From: a virus | Taxonomy: Duplodnaviria; Heunggongvirae; Uroviricota; Caudoviricetes | IMG/VR virus record: IMGVR_UViG_3300046507_000639 | Span: 64,001 to 128,000 of that record | Strand: one strand, 5' to 3' | DNA: 64,000 nt | In this document: in pieces, positions 5,242-61,604 of the stretch | Position numbering within the stretch: position 1 is the first letter of the stretch | How the letters are laid out: each line of letters opens with the position of its first letter | The notes under the pieces: model-generated | What the model saw: the letters and a program-made list of their open reading frames with translations, nothing else | Told to the model about the DNA's origin: nothing | The model's database searches: none | Position numbers and translations under genes: made by a program

Positions 5242-5792
5242 TTGTCGCTGTTACACCTCTTGATGACGGTGCTCTCGTGGCACCCCATCGCCTTCGCGGC
5301 TTCGGTAGCGCTGTTGAATTCTCGGCCGTCGATCCGATAGACGTATTTATGCGACGTCTTATCCCACTTCGTGAGCTTGATGCCCGCGGCGGCGTACTGC
5401 TGCTTCCAGTGGGTGAGGTTCGGGTCTGACTGGTACTTGATGAGCTGAGAGTTCTCTTTGCTCGTCACGAAGTGCACTCGCGCGCGTGACTGCATGAACT
5501 TCTCAAAGCGGTCGATCCGGTCAGCGGACAGTATGCCCTTCTGCATGAGGTCGACCATCTTCTTGGCGCTCTGGGTGCGTGAGAAGTAGTGCTCGCGGCA
5601 CACGTCTTTCGACAGGAGACCGGATGCGGCCTCGCTCACCCAGCCGGTGTGGTTCTTCGGGCACTGGTAGATGACGTCCGAGATGGTGGTGACCATCCGC
5701 TTGTAGTAGTCGGGATCGTACCCGAACTTCTGCCAGCCCTCAAACAGGGCGATGCTGATCTTCGTTGCTGTCTTGTATTTCGATTCGTTCAT
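5199..5792 (-). CDS. Putative free-standing endonuclease (HNH-like core + C-terminal NUMOD1-like HTH)
   Basis: REHYFSR...VHFVTSKEN resembles a beta-beta-alpha-metal site. IDGREFNSATEAAKAMGCHESTVIKRC is NUMOD1-like. Start placed at ATG 5792. Confidence 0.55.
   Translation of the reverse strand: MNESKYKTATKISIALFEGWQKFGYDPDYYKRMVTTISDVIYQCPKNHTGWVSEAASGLLSKDVCREHYFSRTQSAKKMVDLMQKGILSADRIDRFEKFMQSRARVHFVTSKENSQLIKYQSDPNLTHWKQQYAAAGIKLTKWDKTSHKYVYRIDGREFNSATEAAKAMGCHESTVIKRCNSDKWGTWERSAVGGEV
5344..5351 (-). promoter_or_regulatory. Late-promoter variant CATAAATA embedded in CDS
   Basis: Atypical CAT AAA codons; upstream of the two putative virion genes at 2391-5009. Confidence 0.5.
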
Positions 5793-9666: not shown

Positions 9667-10740
9667 TTAACTTACCGTGAGTGCCTCGTTGTAGAGCTCA
9701 GTCATGAAGGACTCCAGGCGGGGAGCGTCCTCATAGTTCATCGAGGCGACGTACTTTCTGAGGATGGTGAGCGTGTCTTCTGCCTCGTCGGGGAGTTCGT
9801 CCTCCCCTTCTTCTGCGAGCAGTTGACCGCGGTCTTCTATGACTTGCAGGCTGATAATATCATGTTTCTCGAATTTGTCAACTACTTTCTCGAGCAGGTA
9901 GGGGTCATTCTTGCACTTCACGATGACCTTGACGTACGTGTCACGGTACTTCTCGGCGTCGAACGACATCATCTGCTCGGCGGTCTTCTTCGAGTCATCG
10001 TAATAGAACTTGTTGAACATGTGGAACGGGTTCGCCACGAACGTCAGCTCTCGGGTGGCAGTGTCGAGGACGTGGAAGCCGCGTGCGTCGCCGTAGTCAG
10101 ACCACGTGTACTGGCCGGTCGAACCGAGGTAGTTGATGCTCCCCACGGTGGACTTGTGATGGTAGTGGCCCGAGCAGACGACGTCGAAGTTCTTCAGGAC
10201 GTCCTTGTCCATTCCGTGCTCGGCGACGGCGCCTCGGTACATCTCAAAGCCGGCCAGCTCGAGGTGTCCCATCAGCACGGTGGCCTTCGACGTCGAGAGC
10301 ATCTTGTAGGACGCGTCCTTGTTCGACGTGGTGATCCACGGCAGCAGCAGGATGTCGAGGCCGTCCACGTTGATCTCCGCGGGGTCCTCGTAGATGCTCA
10401 TCTTCTCGAGGTACTTCGAGCTGCCGTAGAGCGCCTGGAGCGCGTTCAGCTCGTTGGTGTCCTTGAACGCCACGTCGTGGTTCCCGAGGATGAAGTGCGA
10501 CTCGATGCCGCGCTCGTAGAGCGGCTCCATGAGGGTCGCAGTGAGCGATCGGGACGTGTTGAAGTTGATGTACTTCCTCCGGTCGACGGTGTCTCCGAGG
10601 TTGATCACGTGCCGGATGTCGTGGGCGTCGAGGTACGGGAAGAAGACCTCGAGGAAGAACTTCTCCTGGTTGGCGAGGAGAGCCTTGTTGTCTCCTCGGA
10701 CGCCGAAGTGCAGGTCAGTTATCAGTGCTATCTTTGTCAT
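9667..10740 (-). CDS. gp47: Recombination endonuclease subunit (Mre11/SbcD-like)
   Basis: Metallophosphoesterase motifs TDLHFG, LGD, GNHD, GHYH. Confidence 0.95.
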   Translation of the reverse strand: MTKIALITDLHFGVRGDNKALLANQEKFFLEVFFPYLDAHDIRHVINLGDTVDRRKYINFNTSRSLTATLMEPLYERGIESHFILGNHDVAFKDTNELNALQALYGSSKYLEKMSIYEDPAEINVDGLDILLLPWITTSNKDASYKMLSTSKATVLMGHLELAGFEMYRGAVAEHGMDKDVLKNFDVVCSGHYHHKSTVGSINYLGSTGQYTWSDYGDARGFHVLDTATRELTFVANPFHMFNKFYYDDSKKTAEQMMSFDAEKYRDTYVKVIVKCKNDPYLLEKVVDKFEKHDIISLQVIEDRGQLLAEEGEDELPDEAEDTLTILRKYVASMNYEDAPRLESFMTELYNEALTVS

Positions 10741-10915
10741 GGGCCTCTAGCTTCTCTCTCATGAACGCGTCGTACACTTTCTTCGCGAGCTCGTCCCTGT
10801 CGGCGTCTGTCACGTAGCCTCTCTCGATGAGGTAGTCTGCGCGTGAGTAGAACTTCCGACGGTACTCCTGGCCGAGCTCATCGAACTCAATCTTTCGAGA
10901 CACCTTTGTCGACAA
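10715..10915 (-). CDS. Hypothetical protein (66 aa)
   Basis: Fills the gp55-gp47 gap with overlaps; typical codon usage. Confidence 0.6.
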   Translation of the reverse strand: MSTKVSRKIEFDELGQEYRRKFYSRADYLIERGYVTDADRDELAKKVYDAFMREKLEAHDKDSTDN

Positions 10916-21260: not shown

Positions 21261-22670
21261 TTACTTCTTTCCGCCTGGGACCTTGACGTTACCGTCGGTG
21301 GCTTTGTGGATGGCAGTGTTCATGCCGACCCAGCGCTTAGCATACTTCTTTGAAGATGCCTGGCCCTTAGCGTCGTCAACGTGGTTACCGGCATACGCCT
21401 TGTGGGTGTCGACCTGTGCAGCAGCCATGGAGTCCTTGGCCTTCAGCATGTAGTTACGGAGGCGGGTCTGAGATACCTCGTCGAGCTGGTCGAGGATGTC
21501 GTCGATCTCTTCAGACTCAGAGGCGTTGACTTTGGCCCGGCCGCCGAGCTTAGAGAGAGCCAGGGAAGCTCCTTTGTCTCGATTGTCGGCTTTCTTCGCA
21601 TGCTGAGACCTGACGATCTTATCTTTGTGGCTGCGTGCAATCGACGCGTGGTGTGCCTGAGAATTGCCACCGTTCCATGCGCGGTCAACGTAGCTGCGGA
21701 GTCTGTCGTTCGAGACCTCTGCGATCTCTTCCTCGGTCAGGCCGTCGGTGTCGATCGACTTCAGGTCCTCGAGGATGGCGTTCAGTTCTTCTTCCGAGAG
21801 GGACTCCAGGAAGTCCTCGAGGTCGAACTCTTCGGTCTCTTCCTTCGTCAGCTTGTTAACTGCACGATTGATACCAGCCTTACGCTTCTGGTACTTACCA
21901 ACTGCGGCATAAGTTTTGGGGTCATCGTGACCGCCCTTAGAGGCAGCTGCCATTGCTCCACCCATGCTGCTAGCAGCTCGGTTGATGTATGCTCCGAGAC
22001 GTTCTTTCGAGACCTCGTCGAGCTGGTCCAGGATGTCAGAGATGTCTTCAGAGCCCTCCGTAGCGAGCTTGCGGGCCGCAGTATTGATACCATTCTGACG
22101 CTTGTGCATCTTGGTGATCAGGTTAGACTGGTGCTGGTAGCTCTTGCCCGAGCCGTCGCTCTTGGCGCGTGCCTGGCCTAGTTCAGTGCCGCGGTATGCG
22201 TTGTCAGAAGAAGCCTTTGCGACGTACTTCGCGAGTCGTCCCTTCGAGACTTCCTCGAGCTCAGCGTATTCCATGCCCTCGAGGTCGTCGAACTCTTCGC
22301 CCTCGCGGACGTCGGTGTCGTAGCGCTTGCCGACCTTGTGCTTGACGTACGCCTTGTGGGCGGGGTCGTTGCTGTGGACGTGCACGGTGTGCGTGTGCCA
22401 GCCAGTGCGTTCAGTCGTGGCGCTGATGCCGCGCTTCTTCAAGTGTGCCGCGAGCTTCTTGGCGTTGCTCTTGTTGTCGGCGTCGTCGGCACGGAAGTGG
22501 ACCTTGAACTCGTCGAGCTGTGCGTCCGACATCACGTTCTCAGTGACGTCGTCGATGTACGCGTCGATAGCAGAGTCGATCTTGGACTCCAGCATCTCGC
22601 CGACGAGTTCTTTGAAGTCAACGGGCTTGCGGGCGACGGCGGACTCGATGAGGTTTTTGATTTCTGCCAT
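21261..22670 (-). CDS. Expanded prohead core protein at the gp67 position with four basic repeat modules
   Basis: gp67-like N-terminus (KPVDF...+.SK+..AI), then repeats separated by acidic linkers. Confidence 0.6.
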   Translation of the reverse strand: MAEIKNLIESAVARKPVDFKELVGEMLESKIDSAIDAYIDDVTENVMSDAQLDEFKVHFRADDADNKSNAKKLAAHLKKRGISATTERTGWHTHTVHVHSNDPAHKAYVKHKVGKRYDTDVREGEEFDDLEGMEYAELEEVSKGRLAKYVAKASSDNAYRGTELGQARAKSDGSGKSYQHQSNLITKMHKRQNGINTAARKLATEGSEDISDILDQLDEVSKERLGAYINRAASSMGGAMAAASKGGHDDPKTYAAVGKYQKRKAGINRAVNKLTKEETEEFDLEDFLESLSEEELNAILEDLKSIDTDGLTEEEIAEVSNDRLRSYVDRAWNGGNSQAHHASIARSHKDKIVRSQHAKKADNRDKGASLALSKLGGRAKVNASESEEIDDILDQLDEVSQTRLRNYMLKAKDSMAAAQVDTHKAYAGNHVDDAKGQASSKKYAKRWVGMNTAIHKATDGNVKVPGGKK

Positions 22671-36100: not shown

Positions 36101-38935
36101 CGGGTTCTCACCGGGCTCGCCCTGGCGGGAAGTGATCTCACCGAGCTTGTTGATGACGACCAGGTCGCGCCTCGGGAGGTAGTACTCCATGTCGGCGGTG
36201 AAGTTCGTGTCGGCGTCGAGGACGTACACGCCCGTGGCCGGCGCGTTGAACGAGCTGTTCGAGACGGGCGGGTTGATCGTCGCCGCAGAGGAGTTCGCCA
36301 CGTTGGCGGTGTTGAACTTACGCGGGCGGAAGTCGATCGCGTTCCTCAGGTCCACGAAGGAGTTGAAGGAAGACGAGAAGTACTGTGGTATCTCCGCGGT
36401 CTGGATGGCCGTCGCGTTAGCGGTGTTCGCGTCGTCGATCGGGTAGGAGTCCACGCTGAAGAAGCCCACGCCCGTGGTCGTGTTCGCCGAGAACGCGTCG
36501 AGCTCGATGAGGAACTTCGTGTTCGAGGTGATGTTCGACTTGTAGGCCGTCTTGATGATCAGCTTGCCGTGGTCGTAGAAGTTGTCCCTCTGACCGTTGT
36601 CGTACGTGAACCAGGAGGAGCGCTCGGGGTTGGTGGTGCTGTAGGTGTTACCGACGTAGACGTTGCGGACCTTAGCGACGTCGACGAAGCCGAGGTCCCA
36701 CGGGCCGGCGGTCAGGGCAGCGTTGTTCGAGCAGTCTATCTTGACGAATGTGCTCTTCGTGATCGCCTTGCCCGTCGCGACCGCGCTGCTGCGCAGGACC
36801 GGGTACTGCGCGTAGAGCGTCATGGTGCCGGAGTCCATCGTGCCCGTGCCGACCGGGAGGCCGGTGTTGACCGTGAACTGCGTGTTCGAGAGGATCATGA
36901 TGGAGCCGCCGAAGTCGTTGAGGTTCACGACGGTGCCGGCCGGGTAGTACTTCTGGATCTTGGCAGCGGTGTTCGCGGCGGCTGTGACGACGGTGTCGAT
37001 CTGCAGCGACGTGGCGTTGGTGATGGCCGTGACGCTTCGGATCTGGAAGGCCGCGCCGGTCGTGTTGATGCGGATCATGTCGCCGACGTTGAGCAGGGTG
37101 TTGAAGCTCGTTCCGGTGCCGGTGATGACGTTCGAGGTGTTGGCGTAGTTGATCGTACCTGCGAGGTTGGCCGAGTACGCGTTGTTCGACGTGATGATGT
37201 TGAAGCTGTCTGCGAGGGACGAGGACAGAGTGCCGACCGAGGCGTTGAGCCGCTCGACGCCGCCGTTAGCGGGCGAGTTGATCGTGAAGGTCACGAAGCC
37301 GTTGGCGGCCATGGTAGCCGAAGCAGCGTCGCGGAACACGAAGCTGGTCTCGTTGCCGCCCGAAGAGTTGCGGAGACGCTTGACTGCGTTGACGCCGAAC
37401 GGGAACACGAGCGAGTTGCTCGCGGCGTCCTGGATGACCGCGGTGTTGGAAGACGAGAGGACCACGTCAGCCTTGGCCGGTCCGAATGCGGTGGTGCCGT
37501 AGAAGGACTTGACGTCGTTCGCGAAGCTCTTGCCGCTGTTCATCCTCACGTTGAAGAGGTACATGCGGTACTGCGTGAAGGGCGTGCCCTTGTCGTTAGT
37601 GGAGTACTGCAGGCCTAGGACGTTGGCCTTGCCGACGACGTTGCCGGTCGGCGCGGTGCCGCTGCCCTCGTACTCCGAGACGGAGTTCTGGGGGGTGTCG
37701 TACAGGCTCACTTCAGTCGCGTGGTCGAAGTCGAAGGAGCCGACGAGCTCGTCCACGAGGACGTAGTTGCCGTAGTTGCCCGTGACGATCTGGGTCAGCG
37801 CTTCCTTGACGGTCGTCGCCTTGTTGGCCACGAGGTTGAAGGCGTTCAGCTTCTCGATGCGGTAACCCTTGACGTACATGATGCCCGTCGAGATGTTGTA
37901 CTGGAACTGCTGGTTGTTCGCGGTGTACACGTCGGTGTCGATCGTGAACGGCTTGACGGTGTAGTCTCCCGACTCCTCGTTGGTTCGAGAAGCGAGGACG
38001 TCGAGTATCTGGGAGAGGCCGGACTGGTCGGTGTTGGTCTGGGTCGGCGAGTCAGAGTCGAACTCTACGATCGCGAAGAAGTTGGTGCTGTTCGCGGTCT
38101 CGGACTTCGGCTTCGAGACGAGCGTCGCGTTGAGCTGCAGTCGGTCTGCGCCGGGAGCGTTGAAGTTGAAGAAGCCCTGGGCGTTGCTGAGGAGCGACGG
38201 GTCCTGGTTGGAGTTGACGATGACTTCTTCGGTGTTGAAGCCGACGACGTAGTTGTTCACCGACGTGTCGTGGTCGCGCACGGGGATCGTGTGCTGGTCG
38301 ACGTTGATGAAGAAGCCCTTCTGGAAGACGATGCCGTCCGAGACCTGCACGCCGTAAGCGGTGCCGGTGGCGTTGGCGGTGCCGTTCGAGGTGATGATGC
38401 TGATGGTGTCGACGAGGTTGTTCGCGTCGAGCACGCCGAACTTGTTCTGGGCGTCAGTGTAGACGTAGAGCTTCTCACCCGAGGCGAACGAGGTGACGTC
38501 GTTGTTCGAGCCGTCGGTTCCGGTGTAGATGTAGTTGACGTAGAAGCGGTTGGTCTCGGGGTACGTCAGCTCGAAGCCAGACTTGGTCGTGGACACGGCA
38601 GCGCGCACGCCGCTGTTCGACACGAGCAGGTAGTTCTGGGGTATCTCGAGGATGGACAGCTCGTTGTTGGAGTCGAACTGGTTCTTGACGTAGACGACGG
38701 GGTACTGTGGGATGTACGTGATCGCGCAGCGGTCGACGATCGATCCGTCCTTGAAGACGTACGAGCCGAACCGTGCGACCTGCTCCTGCAGGATGCTCTG
38801 GAGCTGCGTGAGCTCACGGGCCTGGACCGCGATCGAGGGCTTGAAGAGTATCCGGTGGTAGTTCTTACCCTCGGCGTCGTCGAAGTCGTCGAAGTACGGT
38901 GATACGTTGAAGTCGGTGTCGAGTCTAGAAGTCAT
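33176..38935 (-). CDS. Large baseplate/tail structural protein (DUF4815/VrlC-like, 1919 aa)
   Basis: NVSPYFDDFD...Y.RILFKP..AVQARELTQLQSILQ.Q, RT.EESGDY, RI..LEYY..L.LLE, RFKNG.F.D.F, DP+AQSF. Confidence 0.85.
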   Translation of the reverse strand: MTSRLDTDFNVSPYFDDFDDAEGKNYHRILFKPSIAVQARELTQLQSILQEQVARFGSYVFKDGSIVDRCAITYIPQYPVVYVKNQFDSNNELSILEIPQNYLLVSNSGVRAAVSTTKSGFELTYPETNRFYVNYIYTGTDGSNNDVTSFASGEKLYVYTDAQNKFGVLDANNLVDTISIITSNGTANATGTAYGVQVSDGIVFQKGFFINVDQHTIPVRDHDTSVNNYVVGFNTEEVIVNSNQDPSLLSNAQGFFNFNAPGADRLQLNATLVSKPKSETANSTNFFAIVEFDSDSPTQTNTDQSGLSQILDVLASRTNEESGDYTVKPFTIDTDVYTANNQQFQYNISTGIMYVKGYRIEKLNAFNLVANKATTVKEALTQIVTGNYGNYVLVDELVGSFDFDHATEVSLYDTPQNSVSEYEGSGTAPTGNVVGKANVLGLQYSTNDKGTPFTQYRMYLFNVRMNSGKSFANDVKSFYGTTAFGPAKADVVLSSSNTAVIQDAASNSLVFPFGVNAVKRLRNSSGGNETSFVFRDAASATMAANGFVTFTINSPANGGVERLNASVGTLSSSLADSFNIITSNNAYSANLAGTINYANTSNVITGTGTSFNTLLNVGDMIRINTTGAAFQIRSVTAITNATSLQIDTVVTAAANTAAKIQKYYPAGTVVNLNDFGGSIMILSNTQFTVNTGLPVGTGTMDSGTMTLYAQYPVLRSSAVATGKAITKSTFVKIDCSNNAALTAGPWDLGFVDVAKVRNVYVGNTYSTTNPERSSWFTYDNGQRDNFYDHGKLIIKTAYKSNITSNTKFLIELDAFSANTTTGVGFFSVDSYPIDDANTANATAIQTAEIPQYFSSSFNSFVDLRNAIDFRPRKFNTANVANSSAATINPPVSNSSFNAPATGVYVLDADTNFTADMEYYLPRRDLVVINKLGEITSRQGEPGENPLAPVNEVDTAVIAETYITPYPSLSSKEAISFNRSDLEIDIDIKTNRVYTEKDIGTLDTRITRLEYYAALNLLEQKAKDTSVTDANGLDRFKNGIFADSFDNDDNGKTTDIEYSIAIDPDKGIARPNFKQHNIDFAYRADLSSSVTKTGHLITAPYTHELFVDQRYATNTRNATGAYWAWNGKLNLYPTYDYFTQEIDSGATLNVTQDLTTPVTTGTTYGDWRTVATNTSANSSSSSTTTTSEQIITTTTAATVANTITTGKYVTDVTQNTYIRSREVAFIATGMKPNTSMHIFFDNKLVDSFCAPATPSGLTNFEAGSENKILNRTANYGTAIKSDGSGNVYGMFKIPDSTFLNGDRELIVTNVTDLVVQAGSILTEATALYTASSISVTSGTTTLTTLTTEINSSSSTQTRSSTQTTTINPQGPSIEGGGGHSGNHGGHDDPIAQSFTATVPSNASGLFLTKVGLYFSSKDAALGCSVFVVETTLGLPDSSKFFGRAYLTSSQINVSADATAETQFTFVNPVYLENGKDYAFLVKPDGNSPDYNLWISEIGNYDVITGEQVYSNPYSGVLFVSANMTTWTANQTEDMKFRLYRANFTVGSGTAVFTNEDDDFLTINGLTKANNSFDVEPGDYIIKVVGGVRISNTANTNYASGRVQTVDEASDFIQIDTSNGNLEPGDVIEFHRSANSVSASFNANTLIANTTIVTVDDPLYNAVVPRFAAINPALTSLTYKFAGVDETYSPDSAQVTLTPEVETELLDYPRVVASRSNEMDSLAGAKSATFSITLTTSNMYISPVIDLRRKAGLMIENVINDDSTNEYTRYGNAVTKYVSKNIVLDDSVGVAEDALVYIGAYRPVGTDIQVYVKLLGAEDGEAFDDKLWTQMQMTDGSSKLYSSPIDVTDYREFQYGLPTSVLASVGSKTTAYLNNGIVQYARSDGALIVGYKTFCFKVVLLSDSTAKVPRMSDIRAIALQK

Positions 38936-46366: not shown

Positions 46367-49300
46367 TTAGCCGCTCCATGTCGCGCGGCTGCCCGGTCTC
46401 ACGTCGACGTGGGTGAACGTCGGGTAGCGACCGATGCCGTGCGCTGCTGGTATGTTGTTGATGATGTAGTCGTGGACCTGCGCCGGCGTGTAGCCCGCGA
46501 TGACGATGTCGGAGGCTCGACCGTACATGTGCTGTGAGTTCTTGGCGCCGCCGATCCTCGCGTTGTACCAGGGCGGGCGGAGGCCCGAGTGGATCGTGAC
46601 CTTGCCCAGGCGACGCGTGAGGACGTCGAGGACGTTCACGGCCAGCTTGGACATGTTCGCCACGATCTCGTCGCAGGACACTCGCCCCGACGGGAGGTCG
46701 AGGTAGGCCGGCATGTCAAACTTGTTGCCGCCCGACTGGAGCATGTCCGCGAGGGTGAAGAACTCGCTGATCTTCTGGTTCCTGTCGGTGTACTTCGTGG
46801 CCTGCGGCGGGAGCGACACGTCGGACTCAGAGCCGCGGGTGGCCGGGCCCGAGCCCACGCCGGTGTTCGGGCTGGTGCCGTTCGCGGGGGTGCTGTTGAG
46901 TCCCGCGTTAGCGTCGAAGTTCGGCGCCGGGTTGAAGATGCCGGGGTCCTTGCTGAAGCAGTCCTTGTAGATAGAAGCAGCGTAGCCCGCACGGTTGCCC
47001 CACTCGTTGCCCGCGAAGACGCCGTTGGTGGCAGACTCGAAGCCGTTGAACCGCTCGTAGAGCGCGGCGGACTTGACGGCGTCGGAGAGGTTGTTCGTCT
47101 TGTACGTGGTGGCCGCGCCGCCCGCGACTCCGTTCGGGTTGTTCTGGAGCTCGTACATCACGTAGTCGAGCTGTCCGTCGACGGTAGTGGACCGGTCTCC
47201 GAGGTAGGACTGCATCATGCTCTTGCGGTTGCCCGAGTCAGTCCACTGCGCGATGCCGGTGGCTCCGATGGAGTTCGTGGAGGTCGGGTTGAAGCGAGAC
47301 TCCTGCATGAAGCCGCCCGCGTACGCCGCCGCTGCCTCCTGGGTCATGCCGCGCTGGACGAGTCCGTTCGCTACCTCGCAGCCGTTGGACGACGATGAGC
47401 CGAGCGACACGGTGTCGAAGTTGGAGCGAGCGAAGTTCGATGGGTTTGCGGGTGAGTTGCTGTTCTGGGTGGCGCCCGAGTTGAAGGCCGAGCGCGTGGG
47501 TGAGGTGCCGACGTTGTTGCCCATCTCGTCGTGGGCCTCCATCTCCTGACGCTTTCCGAAGGTCATGTCGACCGCGGAGGGGTTGGACTCAGGGCTGGAG
47601 ACGACTGACACCGGCTGGAACTTGGCGGGGAAGTCGAACGTCGTGATGGACGGGGCGTCGGTGTGGTCGGCGATCGTGCCCTCGTCGAACGAGTAGTGCC
47701 CGCCGTCGAAGGTGATGTTGCCGCCGCTCGCGTTGACGCCCACTCCGCCGGAAGCGTTGAGGGACATCTTGCCGCCCGTGGTGTTCTCGATGGAGGAGCC
47801 GAACGTCTTGAGCGCTCCGGTGGCCGCGATCGTGCCTGCGCCCGCGGTCGTCGCCAGGAGGTCTCCCTTCGAGAAGATGGAGGTCTGGCCGTTGGAAGCC
47901 ATCGCGAGGTTGCCCTTCGTCATCACGGTCCTGTTGCCGAGCGTCATGTCCACGCTGTAGTTGGACTTGATCGTGTGCGAGCCGGTGGTGACGGTGGTGC
48001 GCGACAGCCCGGCCTGGTCTACCATGGAGCCGGCCGTGAGGTCCTGTCGGTTGCCGCCGACCTCGAGGTTGTAGTCCTTGCCGACCTCGACGAAGTGTCC
48101 CGCCTTGGACTGCTGCTTGAAGACGCCCTCGACCATCGCGGTCTTGTTGCCCGAGACGAACTCGTCGGTCGCGGCGGACACGATGGCGAAGCGACCGCCG
48201 ACCTCGAGGATGAAGTCGCCCGCGATCTTTATCTTCTTGTTGCCGTTTATCGTCTCAGTAGCGTCACCGTTAGATACGATATTATGAGAACCTTGAGCAA
48301 GACTGTACATGTCGCCCTGCGCCATGTGGACGATAGAGCCGTCCGGTCTGATCTCGTGAGCAGACCCCGTAGGAGATACAGTGACAAGTCTCTGCTTACC
48401 CGGAGTATCATCAGCGTAGATAGCGTGGCCACCAGGAGTTTCTCGTATAACGTGAGTGAAGCCATACTCTCCTCCCCAGCCGACCGTCGGCACCTGGACG
48501 GAGTCGATGACGCCCACGGCGGTGCGGTTCGAGGCGTTCCTCGGGTCCTGCGTGTAGAACTTGGTGAGGTTGCCCTTGATCGCCTGGATAGCGGGAGGCA
48601 GCCTGTTGGCGGTCGAAGTGCCGTTGTAGCGTGCGACGACCGGGTAGTCCTGGCCGTAGTTGATCGCGGGGTACGTGCCGCGCGGGTCGTGGAACGCCGT
48701 GGGCGAGGGAGTGACCCCGTCGAACTGGGTCTTGACCGGTATGTTGTCCGTGCCGAGCACCTTGGGCGAGCCGTCGGCGGCGACGTTCACGTTGTTCGGG
48801 AAGACGTCCTTCAGCGACTCCGAGACGTTGAAGTTCGGCTTGACGCCCGAGCCGTCTTTCGTCAGGTTGTTGGCGCCGTCGATCACGGCCTTGGGGTACT
48901 TCTTCAGCAGCACCGTCAGGAGTCGCTTGAGGGCGTTCATCTGTGGGACGGTGAACCTGTCTCCCATCGACGCCGTGTAGTCCCTCTTCGGGTCGTCGGG
49001 CAGGCCGCCCACGAGGCAGACTCGGACCGTGTTGGAGGTGGTGCCTCGCGAGACGATGTTCTCGAGGTCGTCGCCCGAGTCGATGGACTTAGACAGCTGA
49101 TTCTGCGGGAAGACCTGTCCCTGCGCGCTGATCACGAAGTGGTACTGGTCGAGTCCCGTGAACGACTTCAGGGGGAGCGACGCGTTGGACTTGCGGGTGG
49201 AGTTGTGCTCCACGAGGATGAGGCCGGCCTGGTCAGGCGAGTTGTCGAGGGCCTTCTCGTAGTTCGTGCCGACGTCGACCGTGCCCGTGTTGGCGTTGAT

Positions 49301-50059
49301 GTTCACGCCGTCCAGCGAGGACACGCCGAGCATCTGGGCCAGGGAGGTGTTCGAGTACTTGTCGATGTACGAGACGATGTTGTAGCCCTCGGTGGGGTTA
49401 GAACGGATCTTCTCGCTGTTAGAGATAACGTCGTAGATCTGGGTGGCGCGGAGGTCGTTAGTGGAGGACACCACTGAGAGGATGGAGTTGGCCTGGACGG
49501 TGGAGCCCGGCACGATCGGTCCCGTCAGCCCCGAGCTGATGACGTTGGCGTACGACGAGAGGTCGACCGCGTCGGAGGCGTCAGAGACGGTCGGGCCGTA
49601 CGAACCTGGCGCTGCCGACGAGACCTGGCCGAGCGAGACGGACTGGGTGAGTCCCGCGATGCCGTCAGAGCCAGTCGTCGAGATAGACTGGCCGGCGTCC
49701 ACGAGGGTCTGCTGCACCCGCGAGGGCTTGGGGTTGCCCGGGATGGTGCCGATGACGATGGGCTGCTGGGCGTCGCGGCCGTCCGAGAAGAAGCCGATGA
49801 CCCAGGAGCCCTCGACGAGCCCGTGCGTGGCGCCGATGCCCGACATGCCCGCCGAGGTAGTGGGCAGCATCACGTGCGCCCAGGGCAGGTCGGTCGTCGG
49901 GACGAGTGACTTGTCGTCGGGGTGGTAGCCGAGGCAGCGGGCCTGGACCCGGCCCTGCATGAGCGGGTCCTGTATGGACTCGACGACGCCCGCGAACCAG
50001 AAGCTGGTGTCGAACGTGCTGAACGTCATGTCGGTCGTGGTCGGGACGTGTCTCTTCAT
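46367..50059 (-). CDS. gp5: Baseplate hub / tail spike: OB-fold + amidase_2-like + beta-helix + phage tail lysozyme + M15 peptidase
   Basis: GVVES.QDPL.QGRVQ.R..G.H...DLPWA; ETPGGH...DDTPG..R+...PTG (T4 gp5 beta-helix start); QES.FNP...GA.GIAQW; SG.R...N..IGGA.NSQH..G.A.D...THVD. Confidence 0.88.
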   Translation of the reverse strand: MKRHVPTTTDMTFSTFDTSFWFAGVVESIQDPLMQGRVQARCLGYHPDDKSLVPTTDLPWAHVMLPTTSAGMSGIGATHGLVEGSWVIGFFSDGRDAQQPIVIGTIPGNPKPSRVQQTLVDAGQSISTTGSDGIAGLTQSVSLGQVSSAAPGSYGPTVSDASDAVDLSSYANVISSGLTGPIVPGSTVQANSILSVVSSTNDLRATQIYDVISNSEKIRSNPTEGYNIVSYIDKYSNTSLAQMLGVSSLDGVNINANTGTVDVGTNYEKALDNSPDQAGLILVEHNSTRKSNASLPLKSFTGLDQYHFVISAQGQVFPQNQLSKSIDSGDDLENIVSRGTTSNTVRVCLVGGLPDDPKRDYTASMGDRFTVPQMNALKRLLTVLLKKYPKAVIDGANNLTKDGSGVKPNFNVSESLKDVFPNNVNVAADGSPKVLGTDNIPVKTQFDGVTPSPTAFHDPRGTYPAINYGQDYPVVARYNGTSTANRLPPAIQAIKGNLTKFYTQDPRNASNRTAVGVIDSVQVPTVGWGGEYGFTHVIRETPGGHAIYADDTPGKQRLVTVSPTGSAHEIRPDGSIVHMAQGDMYSLAQGSHNIVSNGDATETINGNKKIKIAGDFILEVGGRFAIVSAATDEFVSGNKTAMVEGVFKQQSKAGHFVEVGKDYNLEVGGNRQDLTAGSMVDQAGLSRTTVTTGSHTIKSNYSVDMTLGNRTVMTKGNLAMASNGQTSIFSKGDLLATTAGAGTIAATGALKTFGSSIENTTGGKMSLNASGGVGVNASGGNITFDGGHYSFDEGTIADHTDAPSITTFDFPAKFQPVSVVSSPESNPSAVDMTFGKRQEMEAHDEMGNNVGTSPTRSAFNSGATQNSNSPANPSNFARSNFDTVSLGSSSSNGCEVANGLVQRGMTQEAAAAYAGGFMQESRFNPTSTNSIGATGIAQWTDSGNRKSMMQSYLGDRSTTVDGQLDYVMYELQNNPNGVAGGAATTYKTNNLSDAVKSAALYERFNGFESATNGVFAGNEWGNRAGYAASIYKDCFSKDPGIFNPAPNFDANAGLNSTPANGTSPNTGVGSGPATRGSESDVSLPPQATKYTDRNQKISEFFTLADMLQSGGNKFDMPAYLDLPSGRVSCDEIVANMSKLAVNVLDVLTRRLGKVTIHSGLRPPWYNARIGGAKNSQHMYGRASDIVIAGYTPAQVHDYIINNIPAAHGIGRYPTFTHVDVRPGSRATWSG
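48247..48465 (-). CDS. Putative overprinted membrane protein in the +1 frame of gp5 (72 aa)
   Basis: GGAGGAG SD just before ATG; 30 of 72 codons are NTN; the gp5 codon-bias anomaly is confined to this interval. Confidence 0.65.
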   Translation of the reverse strand: MASLTLYEKLLVATLSTLMILRVSRDLSLYLLRGLLTRSDRTALSSTWRRATCTVLLKVLIISYLTVTLLRR

Positions 50060-59036: not shown

Positions 59037-59342
59037 TTATGCGTCCTCGAGCACTTTCGTCTTCAGCAGCTTCGTGAACGCCGACGTGTCTAGCTTCTGG
59101 ACCTTCTTGAAGCGCGCCCAGTGGTAGCCTCCAGTCCGAACCGGCACTTCCTGTAACACTACCACGACGTGCTCTTCGGTGCGGCCGATGCGGTGGTAGA
59201 ACGCGGTCTTCGTGAAGACGTGCGACACCGTGTAGATACGACCGAGGGTGAGCATGCTGTCGAACACCACTCCGTCGGCGCCTTCCATGTAAGAGTCGAT
59301 GCAGACGACTTCGTCACCTACTACGAACGGGCACTCTATCAC
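59037..59342 (-). CDS. Hypothetical protein (101 aa)
   Basis: F.VGDEVVCID...G.+YTV SH3-like pattern. Confidence 0.6.
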   Translation of the reverse strand: MIECPFVVGDEVVCIDSYMEGADGVVFDSMLTLGRIYTVSHVFTKTAFYHRIGRTEEHVVVVLQEVPVRTGGYHWARFKKVQKLDTSAFTKLLKTKVLEDA

Positions 59343-59815
59343 CAGAAGACCTCCTTCAGTTTAGCCAGCGTGTCCTCGAACGAGGTGTGGACGATGCCGA
59401 CGCCGCCCATCTCTCGCCACGGGACGATGTTCTTCTCGAAGTCGTCGATCAGCACGTCGCCTCGCTGCTTCATGAAGAGGCACTTGTTCTTGCCTCCCAT
59501 GACGGGCAGCACGTGGAGCCGCTTCGAGATGTGGTTGTGCACCCAGTCACGCTTCTGGATAGCAGCCTTGAAGTAGTTCGTTCGCGGGCACGCCGTGAGG
59601 ATGATCGGCAGGCCTCCCCACGAGTCGTACAGCGTGTCGCAGAAGGTGAGCGCTCCGGGCAGAGGCGGGAGCGAGCCGAAGAAGTTCTCGTGGGCATCGA
59701 TCAGCCTCCACATCTCCTTGTCGGAGACGGAGTCGTGACGGAAGCCGAAGTGGCTCTCGAAGTAGCCCTCAAAGTCGGCCATGACACCGTCGAGGTCCAG
59801 GAATACGATGGGCAT
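59339..59815 (-). CDS. HAD-family 5'(3')-deoxyribonucleotidase (NT5C-like)
   Basis: FLDLDGVMADF, ILTA.P, K..WV, LIDD...N+..W...GG.GI.H. Confidence 0.85.
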   Translation of the reverse strand: MPIVFLDLDGVMADFEGYFESHFGFRHDSVSDKEMWRLIDAHENFFGSLPPLPGALTFCDTLYDSWGGLPIILTACPRTNYFKAAIQKRDWVHNHISKRLHVLPVMGGKNKCLFMKQRGDVLIDDFEKNIVPWREMGGVGIVHTSFEDTLAKLKEVFW

Positions 59816-60689: not shown

Positions 60690-61604
60690 TCAGTCGTCTG
60701 CCGCGAGTCGTTTGAAGAACTCGAGGTCTTCGTCGTCCCCGCCGCTGTTCCACGGCGCGTCGTCGGCCTTGGCAGCGGGTGCCGGCTTGGACTTGGACTC
60801 GGACCGCTCTTCGCGGGCCTGCTCGAACTTCTGCTCCTCGCGAGATGCCGCCGGCGCGTCGTTCAGTCCGAGGACCTTGTTGAGGCGCTTCTGCAGCTCG
60901 TCGTAGGACTTGAAGTTGGACGCGTCAAGGAACGCCTTGAGCGAGTGCTCCTGCTTCCAGATCGCCTCGAGCTTCTCGTCGTCGAACTTGCCGAGGACGC
61001 CCTTGGTGGCGAACTCAGACTTGTCGTAGTTCCGGTAGCCCTCGACCTGACGGATCTTGAGCTTGAAGTCGGCGCCTTCCCAGAGGTCGAACGGGTTGAT
61101 CGGGTCCTCGTCCTCGAACTTCGGGTTCATCACGTCCGTGACTTTCTCGAAGATCTTCTTGCCGTACTTCCACAGGAACACCTTGCCCTCGTTGGCGGGG
61201 TTGCCGGAGTCCTTCACGATGTACACGTTCGAGATGAAGTGCAGCCGGCGCTTCTGCTTGCGGGCGACGTCTTTGTTCGCCTCGACGCCGCTCTGCCACA
61301 GCTCGGAGTTGTACTTCGAGACGGGGTCGTCCTGGCCGATGGTGGTCAGCGAGTTCTCGATGTACCAGCCGCCCGGGCCCTGGAAGCCGTGGTCCCACGT
61401 GCGAATGAACGGCTCGTCTTCAGCGCCCGGTGCCGGCAGGAAGCGGAGCACAGCGTAGCCGTTGCCCTGTTCATCGACGGTCGGGGTCCAAAAGCGGTCG
61501 TCTTTTCGGGAGTTGTCGTTTCCGTTGGAGATCGAGGCGACCTTCGCGTTGAGGGCCTCGAGAGAAGAAGTGCGCGACTTCTTGAGTTGACTAAAGTCTA
61601 CCAT
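60690..61604 (-). CDS. gp32: Single-stranded DNA-binding protein
   Basis: DDRFW.P..D..GNGYAV+RFLPAP, H.FQGPGGWYIENSLTT, F+WKYGKKIF, FD.WEGA.FKLKIR.V.GY.NYDKSEF, acidic tail. Confidence 0.97.
   Translation of the reverse strand: MVDFSQLKKSRTSSLEALNAKVASISNGNDNSRKDDRFWTPTVDEQGNGYAVLRFLPAPGAEDEPFIRTWDHGFQGPGGWYIENSLTTIGQDDPVSKYNSELWQSGVEANKDVARKQKRRLHFISNVYIVKDSGNPANEGKVFLWKYGKKIFEKVTDVMNPKFEDEDPINPFDLWEGADFKLKIRQVEGYRNYDKSEFATKGVLGKFDDEKLEAIWKQEHSLKAFLDASNFKSYDELQKRLNKVLGLNDAPAASREEQKFEQAREERSESKSKPAPAAKADDAPWNSGGDDEDLEFFKRLAADD

Follow-up and report, generated by a model that had tools for sequence, protein, structure and literature searches.

A T-rich patch with reduced synonymous divergence in the gp5-like spike gene of a T4-like phage coincides with a candidate overprinted gene

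Gene 5 of bacteriophage T4 (positions 77959 to 79686 of GenBank AF158101) carries other elements within its coding sequence, namely repEB (77981 to 78118) and repEA (79085 to 79237), both on the minus strand, and the replication origin oriE at 79355 (reviewed in PMC3016281). The products of repEA and repEB, of 50 and 45 amino acids, are overprinted in gp5, and both genes are antisense, early, and origin linked; the T4-like Citrobacter phage Moon lacks them (PMC4319498). Here, we analyze a 64,000-nucleotide (nt) stretch of phage DNA, referred to below as the window, which represents positions 64,001 to 128,000 of the IMG/VR record IMGVR_UViG_3300046507_000639, a 135.8-kb T4-like virus record in its entirety. 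The gp5-like baseplate hub and spike gene of this phage contains a patch of about 230 nt that is rich in codons ending in T and that coincides with an open reading frame (ORF) of 72 codons in the +1 frame of gp5 (Table 1). A lineage-specific overprinted gene, translated from this ORF, is our leading explanation for the patch; going by the sequence, we hold this to be a plausible account that falls somewhat short of probable.

The patch lies on the segment of gene 5 whose T4 counterpart is overlain by repEA. Residues 379 to 492 of T4 gp5 align with residues 524 to 645 of the hub protein at 31% identity, at the start of the β-helix. Within this alignment, T4 residues 379 to 455 correspond to the T-rich patch, and repEA, which spans gp5 codons 376 to 427, corresponds to its first two-thirds. 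In contrast to repEA and repEB, the ORF described here, the only one confined to the patch, uses the +1 frame of the sense strand, has no early promoter, and shares no sequence similarity with them. An earlier note on this DNA knew of no description of such a gene in T4-like gp5; embedded elements have in fact been described there, one of them on the homologous segment, although these are antisense rather than same-strand, +1-frame genes. The features of an oriE/repEA-type element, which are a small antisense ORF, an antisense early promoter (matching at least 10 of 12 positions), and direct repeats, were not found in the patch. By analogy, we treat the T4 repEA/oriE parallel as a lead for a rival explanation and not as grounds for membership. 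The evenly spaced direct repeats near oriE in T4 (L014 [T4 AF158101] 5403-5570; GTTGAAGGTAAT / GTTAAAGGTAAT, 24-nt spacing) are themselves the VxGN octapeptide repeats of the gp5 β-helix.

Other described systems are on the same strand as their host gene. Lambda Rz1 in Rz resembles the gp5 ORF in being a same-strand +1 gene that is fully contained in a larger, late-expressed one, has a ribosome-binding site to itself, and specifies a hydrophobic product. The Rz1 lipoprotein, however, carries a signal peptide and a lipobox cysteine and is encoded within a lysis gene, whereas the gp5 ORF lies in a structural spike gene and has no lipobox (no L-x-x-C follows an N-terminal signal, and the single cysteine, Cys53, is preceded by R-R-A-T). 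phiX174 E (in D) and MS2 L are, like the predicted gp5 ORF product, small hydrophobic overprinted proteins read from an essential gene in a different frame. Those two are lysis genes of tiny single-stranded DNA and single-stranded RNA phages, with proven phenotypes; the gp5 ORF, unlike them, is without homology and belongs to a T4-like genome of about 136 kb or larger, which has no obvious need for single-gene lysis.

As the earlier note had reported, the ORF begins just after a GGAGGAG, and 30 of its 72 residues are Leu, Val, Ile, or Met. The GGAGG of this Shine-Dalgarno (SD)-like sequence ends 5 nt before the ATG, and its GGA is a non-preferred codon in the gp5 gene. As is expected of an overprinted gene, the ORF is intact, out of frame with the gp5 gene that contains it, and equipped with a start codon and a ribosome-binding site for itself. 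The SD sits at the first codons of the patch with low G+C content at third positions (GC3), and the ORF stop sits at the last. Relatives were gathered by protein searches, which returned seven (a further sequence, P0014, spans just the C-terminal half); the gp5 GC3 of the seven runs from 0.24 to 0.81, and L002 is the only one from the same high-GC lineage (84% amino acid identity, GC3 of 0.81). L002 has the patch in the same alignment columns, with an identical GGA GGA GAG TAT G, and a +1 ORF with the same start, the same 72 codons, and a stop at the same position (TGA versus TAA), in spite of 31 differing nucleotides. It is the exact coincidence of the ORF with a constrained, T-specific patch that makes the argument for a gene. 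The TAT-to-TAC change suggested previously as a knockout that is silent in gp5 does destroy the ATG.

The switch to T-ending gp5 codons across this interval, also pointed out in the earlier note, is real and large. The frequency of T at third positions (T3) is 0.39 in the patch versus 0.03 elsewhere in gp5, and that of A (A3) is 0.12 versus 0.04. In windows of 25 codons, GC3 is 0.36 to 0.68 in the patch versus 0.84 to 1.00 along the remainder of gp5; the overall GC content of the patch is still about 51%. The patch has the lowest 40-codon GC3 among 14,416 such intervals in the genes of the window (minimum of 0.375; mean of 0.89, standard deviation of 0.076) and is the longest and deepest internal GC3 dip of any long gene in the whole 135.8-kb genome. 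At four-fold degenerate sites, the T:A ratio is 24:3 (22:3 in L002) versus 99:51 in relatives (P = 0.02). The four-fold T frequency (0.60) is above, and the A frequency (0.07) below, that of every low-GC relative; thus, the patch is not merely a frozen ancestral state. Position 3 of a gp5 codon is position 2 in the +1 frame, where a T yields Leu, Val, Ile, Met, or Phe and never a stop. The excess of T over A is not predicted by models based on AT-richness or on rare codons.

Comparison of the window phage with L002 revealed that this interval also diverges less at synonymous sites. The proportion of synonymous differences (pS) is 0.26 in the patch versus 0.48 in its flanks and 0.53 in the rest of gp5 (patch versus flanks, binomial P = 6e-4), whereas nonsynonymous divergence (dN) is 0.103 in the patch versus 0.108 and 0.112, respectively. 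Among 2196 intervals of 76 codons from 29 orthologous gene pairs, pS is lower in only one interval than in the patch, which is the sole low-pS interval that is not at extreme GC3; the highest 25-codon codon identity (0.96) among 9427 intervals also falls within it. Outside the patch, synonymous sites are saturated, with 42% of four-fold sites that are G or C in both genomes differing and only 20 of 62 sites that are A or T (AT3) in the window phage being AT3 in L002, which is about the background rate. Inside the patch, 18 of 19 AT3 four-fold sites are shared (Fisher P = 1.5e-6), the choice between T and A is identical at all 18, and 8 of 9 GC/GC sites are identical. Divergence at codon positions 1 and 2 is 0.132 and 0.066, compared with 0.141 and 0.063 in the flanks. 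A block of 48 nt that encodes the C-terminal hydrophobic stretch of the ORF shows no difference at all (P = 1.5e-5 at the flank rate), and the gp5 genes of the other relatives are variable over it. The lowering of pS with dN unchanged argues for selection on synonymous sites rather than recent import; from this sequence comparison of two genomes, we consider it probable that synonymous sites in the patch are under selection of some kind, and likely that the segment is maintained for a second use beside coding for gp5.

Recent import is the essence of a rival reading in which the patch is a functionless mosaic segment that was recombined from a sister lineage of lower GC content, itself unsampled, then passed between the two high-GC lineages, and is younger than its flanks. 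In phage genomes, a local anomaly in composition is often a sign of recombination. The patch covers the most conserved motif of gp5, which offers the highest homology for crossovers, and its third-position composition resembles that of L006; in addition, lower-GC relatives (e.g., L011, with GC3 of ~0.45) come from metagenomes numbered 3300046xxx, suggesting the same study. A young patch should lower both dN and the synonymous divergence (dS), yet dS is at least 2.5-fold lower in the patch, with dN equal to that of the flanks, and ~17 nonsynonymous differences are seen where ~1 to 2 would be expected from the four-fold sites. Amino acid identity in the patch and in the flanks is equal for every relative (window phage and L011, 0.70 versus 0.70), so there is no signal of a foreign donor. 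Exact 20- to 26-nt pieces of the patch occur only in the contig of L002 among viral contigs and in none of the metagenome or GTDB genome contigs, and a blastn donor search of 50,697 phage records gave no match. Together with the T and A frequencies at four-fold sites, which lie beyond those of all low-GC relatives, these observations lead us to regard a mosaic origin as very unlikely.

Selection on synonymous sites could also reflect a non-coding nucleic acid element within gp5, such as an origin-like or DNA-unwinding site, a site bound by a protein, or a transcript that is antisense or regulatory, with the ORF as a T-rich by-product. The homologous part of T4 gene 5 carries the antisense repEA, ~40 codons from oriE, and the synonymous constraint, the invariant 48-nt block, and the embedded promoters marked by other GC3 dips in this genome all fit such an element. 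It should, however, constrain codon positions 1 and 2, which diverge as in the flanks, and AT-richness would leave the preference for T over A unexplained; the GC content of the patch, at about 51%, also speaks against it. The strong sigma-70-type early promoters of this genome are TTGACA/TTTACA-17-TATAxT, matching 10 to 12 of 12 positions, and its T4-type late promoters, TATAAATA, lie mostly 25 to 50 nt upstream of gene starts; neither strand of the patch has an early promoter (at least 10 of 12) or a late one, and its one weak sigma-70-like match is probably noise (Table 1). The patch also lacks iterons (the T4 "iterons" being the β-helix repeats themselves), an Rfam match, and a stable RNA fold (minimum free energy z = 0.9 sense, -0.03 antisense), and the antisense frame of the repEA type is closed by many stops. 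We judge a non-coding element to be unlikely.

A third possibility is that translation is slowed at the β-helix start, where non-preferred codons and an SD-like pause would give the N-terminal domains time for folding or trimerization ahead of the emergence of the helix. The patch start coincides with the start of the C-terminal β-helix domain of T4 gp5, the patch is rich in codons that are rare in this genome (ATA, AGA, CGA, GGA, and NNT), and the extra conservation is at codon position 3 only. For such a pause, T and A should be interchangeable, yet they are conserved individually at every shared AT3 four-fold site (~3e-4 expected if randomized at the T:A ratio observed). GC-ending four-fold codons are conserved as well, A-ending codons, the rarest, are depleted, and lower-GC relatives show no equivalent constraint; a slow-down is, in our view, highly improbable. 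Other explanations hold the remaining probability.

Of the readings considered, an overlapping +1 ORF accounts for most of these features, namely, the preserved SD, ATG, and stop, the T-specific enrichment, and the reduced dS with normal dN, and to this extent the interpretation in the earlier note is supported in part. Under the overprinted-gene reading, the same bases of the patch would encode both gp5 and a 72-residue +1 protein in the high-GC lineage. The ORF would be carried on a late polycistronic baseplate mRNA, ribosomes would start internally at GGAGGAG-N3-ATG, and translation would proceed through the 72 codons and end where the patch ends on its 3' side. T-ending gp5 codons would be needed because the Leu, Val, Ile, and Met codons of the ORF need T at position 2, and the Ts of the patch would have been shielded while other third positions moved to GC3 of ~0.9. 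The product would be small, basic, and Leu-rich, and its single hydrophobic stretch, at the C terminus, might serve as a membrane anchor. Translation, selection on the protein, and membrane association are what we infer from these features.

Other GC3 dips in the same genome serve as a calibration. A true +1 overlap (G000 38536-38652), in which the hydrophobic signal peptide of a downstream lipoprotein gene overlaps the upstream gene in the +1 frame, has T3 of 0.33 and A3 of 0.10 and so shares the signature of the gp5 patch. In promoter-containing dips, A3 roughly equals or exceeds T3, and dips at 3' ends hold late promoters. The embedded-promoter dips are like the patch in being local and inside genes; they differ in being shorter and in containing TTGACA-16/17-TATAxT or TATAAATA, whereas the patch has neither motif and is T-specific.

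Several observations weigh against an overprinted gene. The coincidence of ORF start and patch start is partly mechanical, because an NTG in the +1 frame needs a T-ending gp5 codon. The +1 frame is open from stop to stop for 179 codons (48786..48249). Resampling of synonymous codons, by contrast, counts in favor of a gene: an ATG with a 5-mer SD and an alternative-frame ORF of at least 60 codons arose in 0.8% of trials with the codon usage of the patch and in ~8% with that of relatives, and the +1 frame stayed open for 72 codons in 3.7 to 31% of trials, depending on the model. Only two nested ORFs with these properties exist genome-wide, the gp5 ORF included, and a 5-mer SD precedes only 26 of 143 called gene starts. 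The second nested +1 ORF (window 59473-59697, minus strand; 75 codons, ATG, GGAGG 7 nt upstream) lies inside a gene for 158 amino acids (59342-59815); GC3 in its host frame is normal (0.88), its product is rich in Arg, Ser, and Thr, and it looks like a chance ORF. Since a chance-like ORF with SD and ATG exists in this genome, the gp5 ORF alone proves nothing. In addition, T3-rich dips also occur elsewhere without a long ORF, one example being in a metallophosphatase-like gene (G000:C1:45298-45456; T3 of 0.28, A3 of 0.08).

Conservation in relatives belongs to both sides of the ledger. Between the window phage and L002, 55 of 72 ORF residues (76%) are identical, compared with 84% for gp5, and residues 24 to 40 are poorly conserved, with radical changes. 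In favor of a gene, the +1-frame identity of 0.76 to 0.78 is in the top ~1.2% of 1193 intervals; against it, the +1-frame ratio of nonsynonymous to synonymous differences (pN/pS), at 1.13, falls within the range of control +1 frames (1.43 ± 0.38), a comparison of two sequences with low power. Of the analyses proposed previously, the test for synonymous constraint thus gave a reduced pS with normal dN over exactly the ORF interval, while purifying selection on the +1 frame itself went undetected. Likewise, the expected conservation across gp5 homologs held for SD, ATG, length, and stop position in L002 but failed in the lower-GC relatives L003 to L008 and L011, which lack the ATG or the SD or have early stops. 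Early +1 stops occur in L003, L004, L005, and L011, the last of which also has TAC and no SD, and L006 and L008 are without an SD. The gene would therefore have to be young. The patch is carried by just two genomes, the window phage and L002, both metagenomic contigs, whose ORFs are not independent; with only these two, the evidence is thin.

The predicted product offers no firmer ground. T at the second codon position makes hydrophobicity an automatic by-product: when 72-codon +1 blocks were drawn at random from gp5, the hydropathy threshold applied to the ORF was reached by 51 to 63% of them in L003 and L004, which are rich in T3, and by 33% in L005, 22% in L008, and 0% in L006. No homolog of the ORF was found among 5.8 billion proteins, its language-model recognition score (1954) is under the 2300 reached by most real families, and AlphaFold gives two long helices (predicted local distance difference test of ~70, predicted template modeling score of 0.35), as it would for any Leu-rich peptide. 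The product has no Pfam or PHROG match, and its best atlas matches score 0.85 to 0.86, under the lead threshold of 0.9. With a net charge of +8, the Leu-rich protein is very basic; its longest uncharged runs are 12 residues, compared with the ~18 to 20 of a holin helix, and the only 19-residue stretch with a Kyte-Doolittle value of at least 1.6 (amino acids 51 to 72) includes Lys58. A search of the genome with PF11031 (T holin) gave no match, the controls being equally unresponsive. Given the short uncharged runs, Lys58, the lack of a holin homolog, and the automatic hydrophobicity, the proposal that the ORF encodes a two-helix membrane protein acting as a holin or in single-gene lysis is unsupported.

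TABLE 1 Features of the gp5 locus, in positions of the window
Feature	Position	Strand	Remarks
gp5-like baseplate hub/spike gene, 1230 amino acids	46367..50059	-	Gp5_OB 49-111, Phage_lysozyme2 895-1032, Peptidase_M15 1137-1219
Low-GC3, T3-rich patch, gp5 codons ~529-606	48242..48477	-	Defined by GC3, T3, and lower synonymous divergence from L002
SD-like GGAGGAG, Gly-Gly-Glu codons GGA GGA GAG	48469..48475	-	Identical in L002
+1-frame ORF, 72 codons plus TAA; ATG formed by gp5 TAT+G	48247..48465	-	Inside 46367..50059
48-nt block without any difference between the window phage and L002	48260..48307	-	Encodes the C-terminal hydrophobic stretch of the ORF
Weak sigma-70-like match TGTACA-17-CATAAT, 9 of 12	48281..48309	-	Genome-wide, 9/12 matches occur equally often within genes and in intergenic DNA

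A number of other candidate explanations were tried and rejected. The patch is single copy in the genome, which speaks against a gene-conversion template or a diversity-generating retroelement. It contains no repeats, and those nearby are coding repeats of the β-helix. On the opposite strand, only the codon-aligned antisense frame is open, as part of a 604-codon composition artifact without an SD. A programmed frameshift into the +1 frame is unsupported, no slippery site being seen when the sequence was read by eye. An assembly chimera is countered by two independent assemblies that share the patch yet differ there by 13.6%. Finally, the only phage tRNAs in the window are Cys, Leu(UAA), Leu(CAA), and Trp, which leaves no tRNA explanation.

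Across the gp5 family (orthologs L002 to L008 and L011), GC3 ranges from 0.24 to 0.90 at 52 to 85% amino acid identity. The high-GC lineage retains an AT-type amino acid composition (G+C content of ~0.45 at second codon positions), indicating that, measured against protein divergence, third positions shifted rapidly and recently. In L002, L004, L005, L007, and L008, the strand opposite gp5 carries, ~3 kb upstream of it, a gene for a Tn7 TnsA-like endonuclease (first ~290 nt of each locus), adjoining the block of tail-cap, gp53, and gp5 genes.

Further dips and intervals were observed elsewhere in the genome. At G000:C1:38235-38958, two minus-strand genes overlap by ~70 nt; the last ~25 codons of the upstream gene are T3-rich, and the downstream gene (122 amino acids, +1 frame) has a signal-peptide-like N terminus ending in ...LSLSNC. 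Judging by this arrangement, the lipoprotein-like gene and its partner are possibly an overlapped pair of the spanin type. The dip in the metallophosphatase-like gene covers conserved metal-binding motifs, and its +1 frame has a 22-codon hydrophobic ORF after AGGAG-N9-ATG. Near-consensus early promoters lie in the dips at window 9757-9924 (TTGACA-16-TATTAT at 9881, in the minus-strand gene 9670-10746) and at G000:C1:3345-3530 (TTGACA-16-TATAGT at genome position 3448, inside coding sequence). A prohead-core-like gene with repeats (21264-22670, minus strand) has several GC3 dips at window 21504-22043, with a minimum of 0.43 and no promoter match. The lowest pS of all 76-codon intervals (0.23) belongs to codons ~124 to 225 at window 60693-61604 (minus strand), where GC3 is 0.95 and +1-frame identity is 0.79.

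Taken as a whole, the observations at the gp5 locus can be combined into a fuller picture, which we put forward tentatively. A young, lineage-specific +1 gene would lie on the most conserved motif of gp5 and would have been kept through a GC3 swing from AT-rich to ~90%, which left its footprint in view, and its late, basic, Leu-rich product might have a membrane role, such as timing lysis or controlling superinfection. Even if the ORF should be spurious, the patch would point to some functional element, so far unexplained, at the place where T4 has repEA and oriE. A shift of GC3 across the whole genome works like a natural screen, in which sequences that withstood it are under additional selection; in this genome, screening for GC3 dips also revealed early and late promoters embedded in genes as well as a true overlap of genes, and the approach could serve as a cheap general method wherever the composition of a lineage has recently shifted. 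A real +1 ORF would be a de novo gene with a clean evolutionary footprint, born within a virion protein that is both conserved and essential in a T4-like phage, and, together with T4 repEA, it would make the β-helix start of gp5 a recurrent site of overprinting in T4-like phages.

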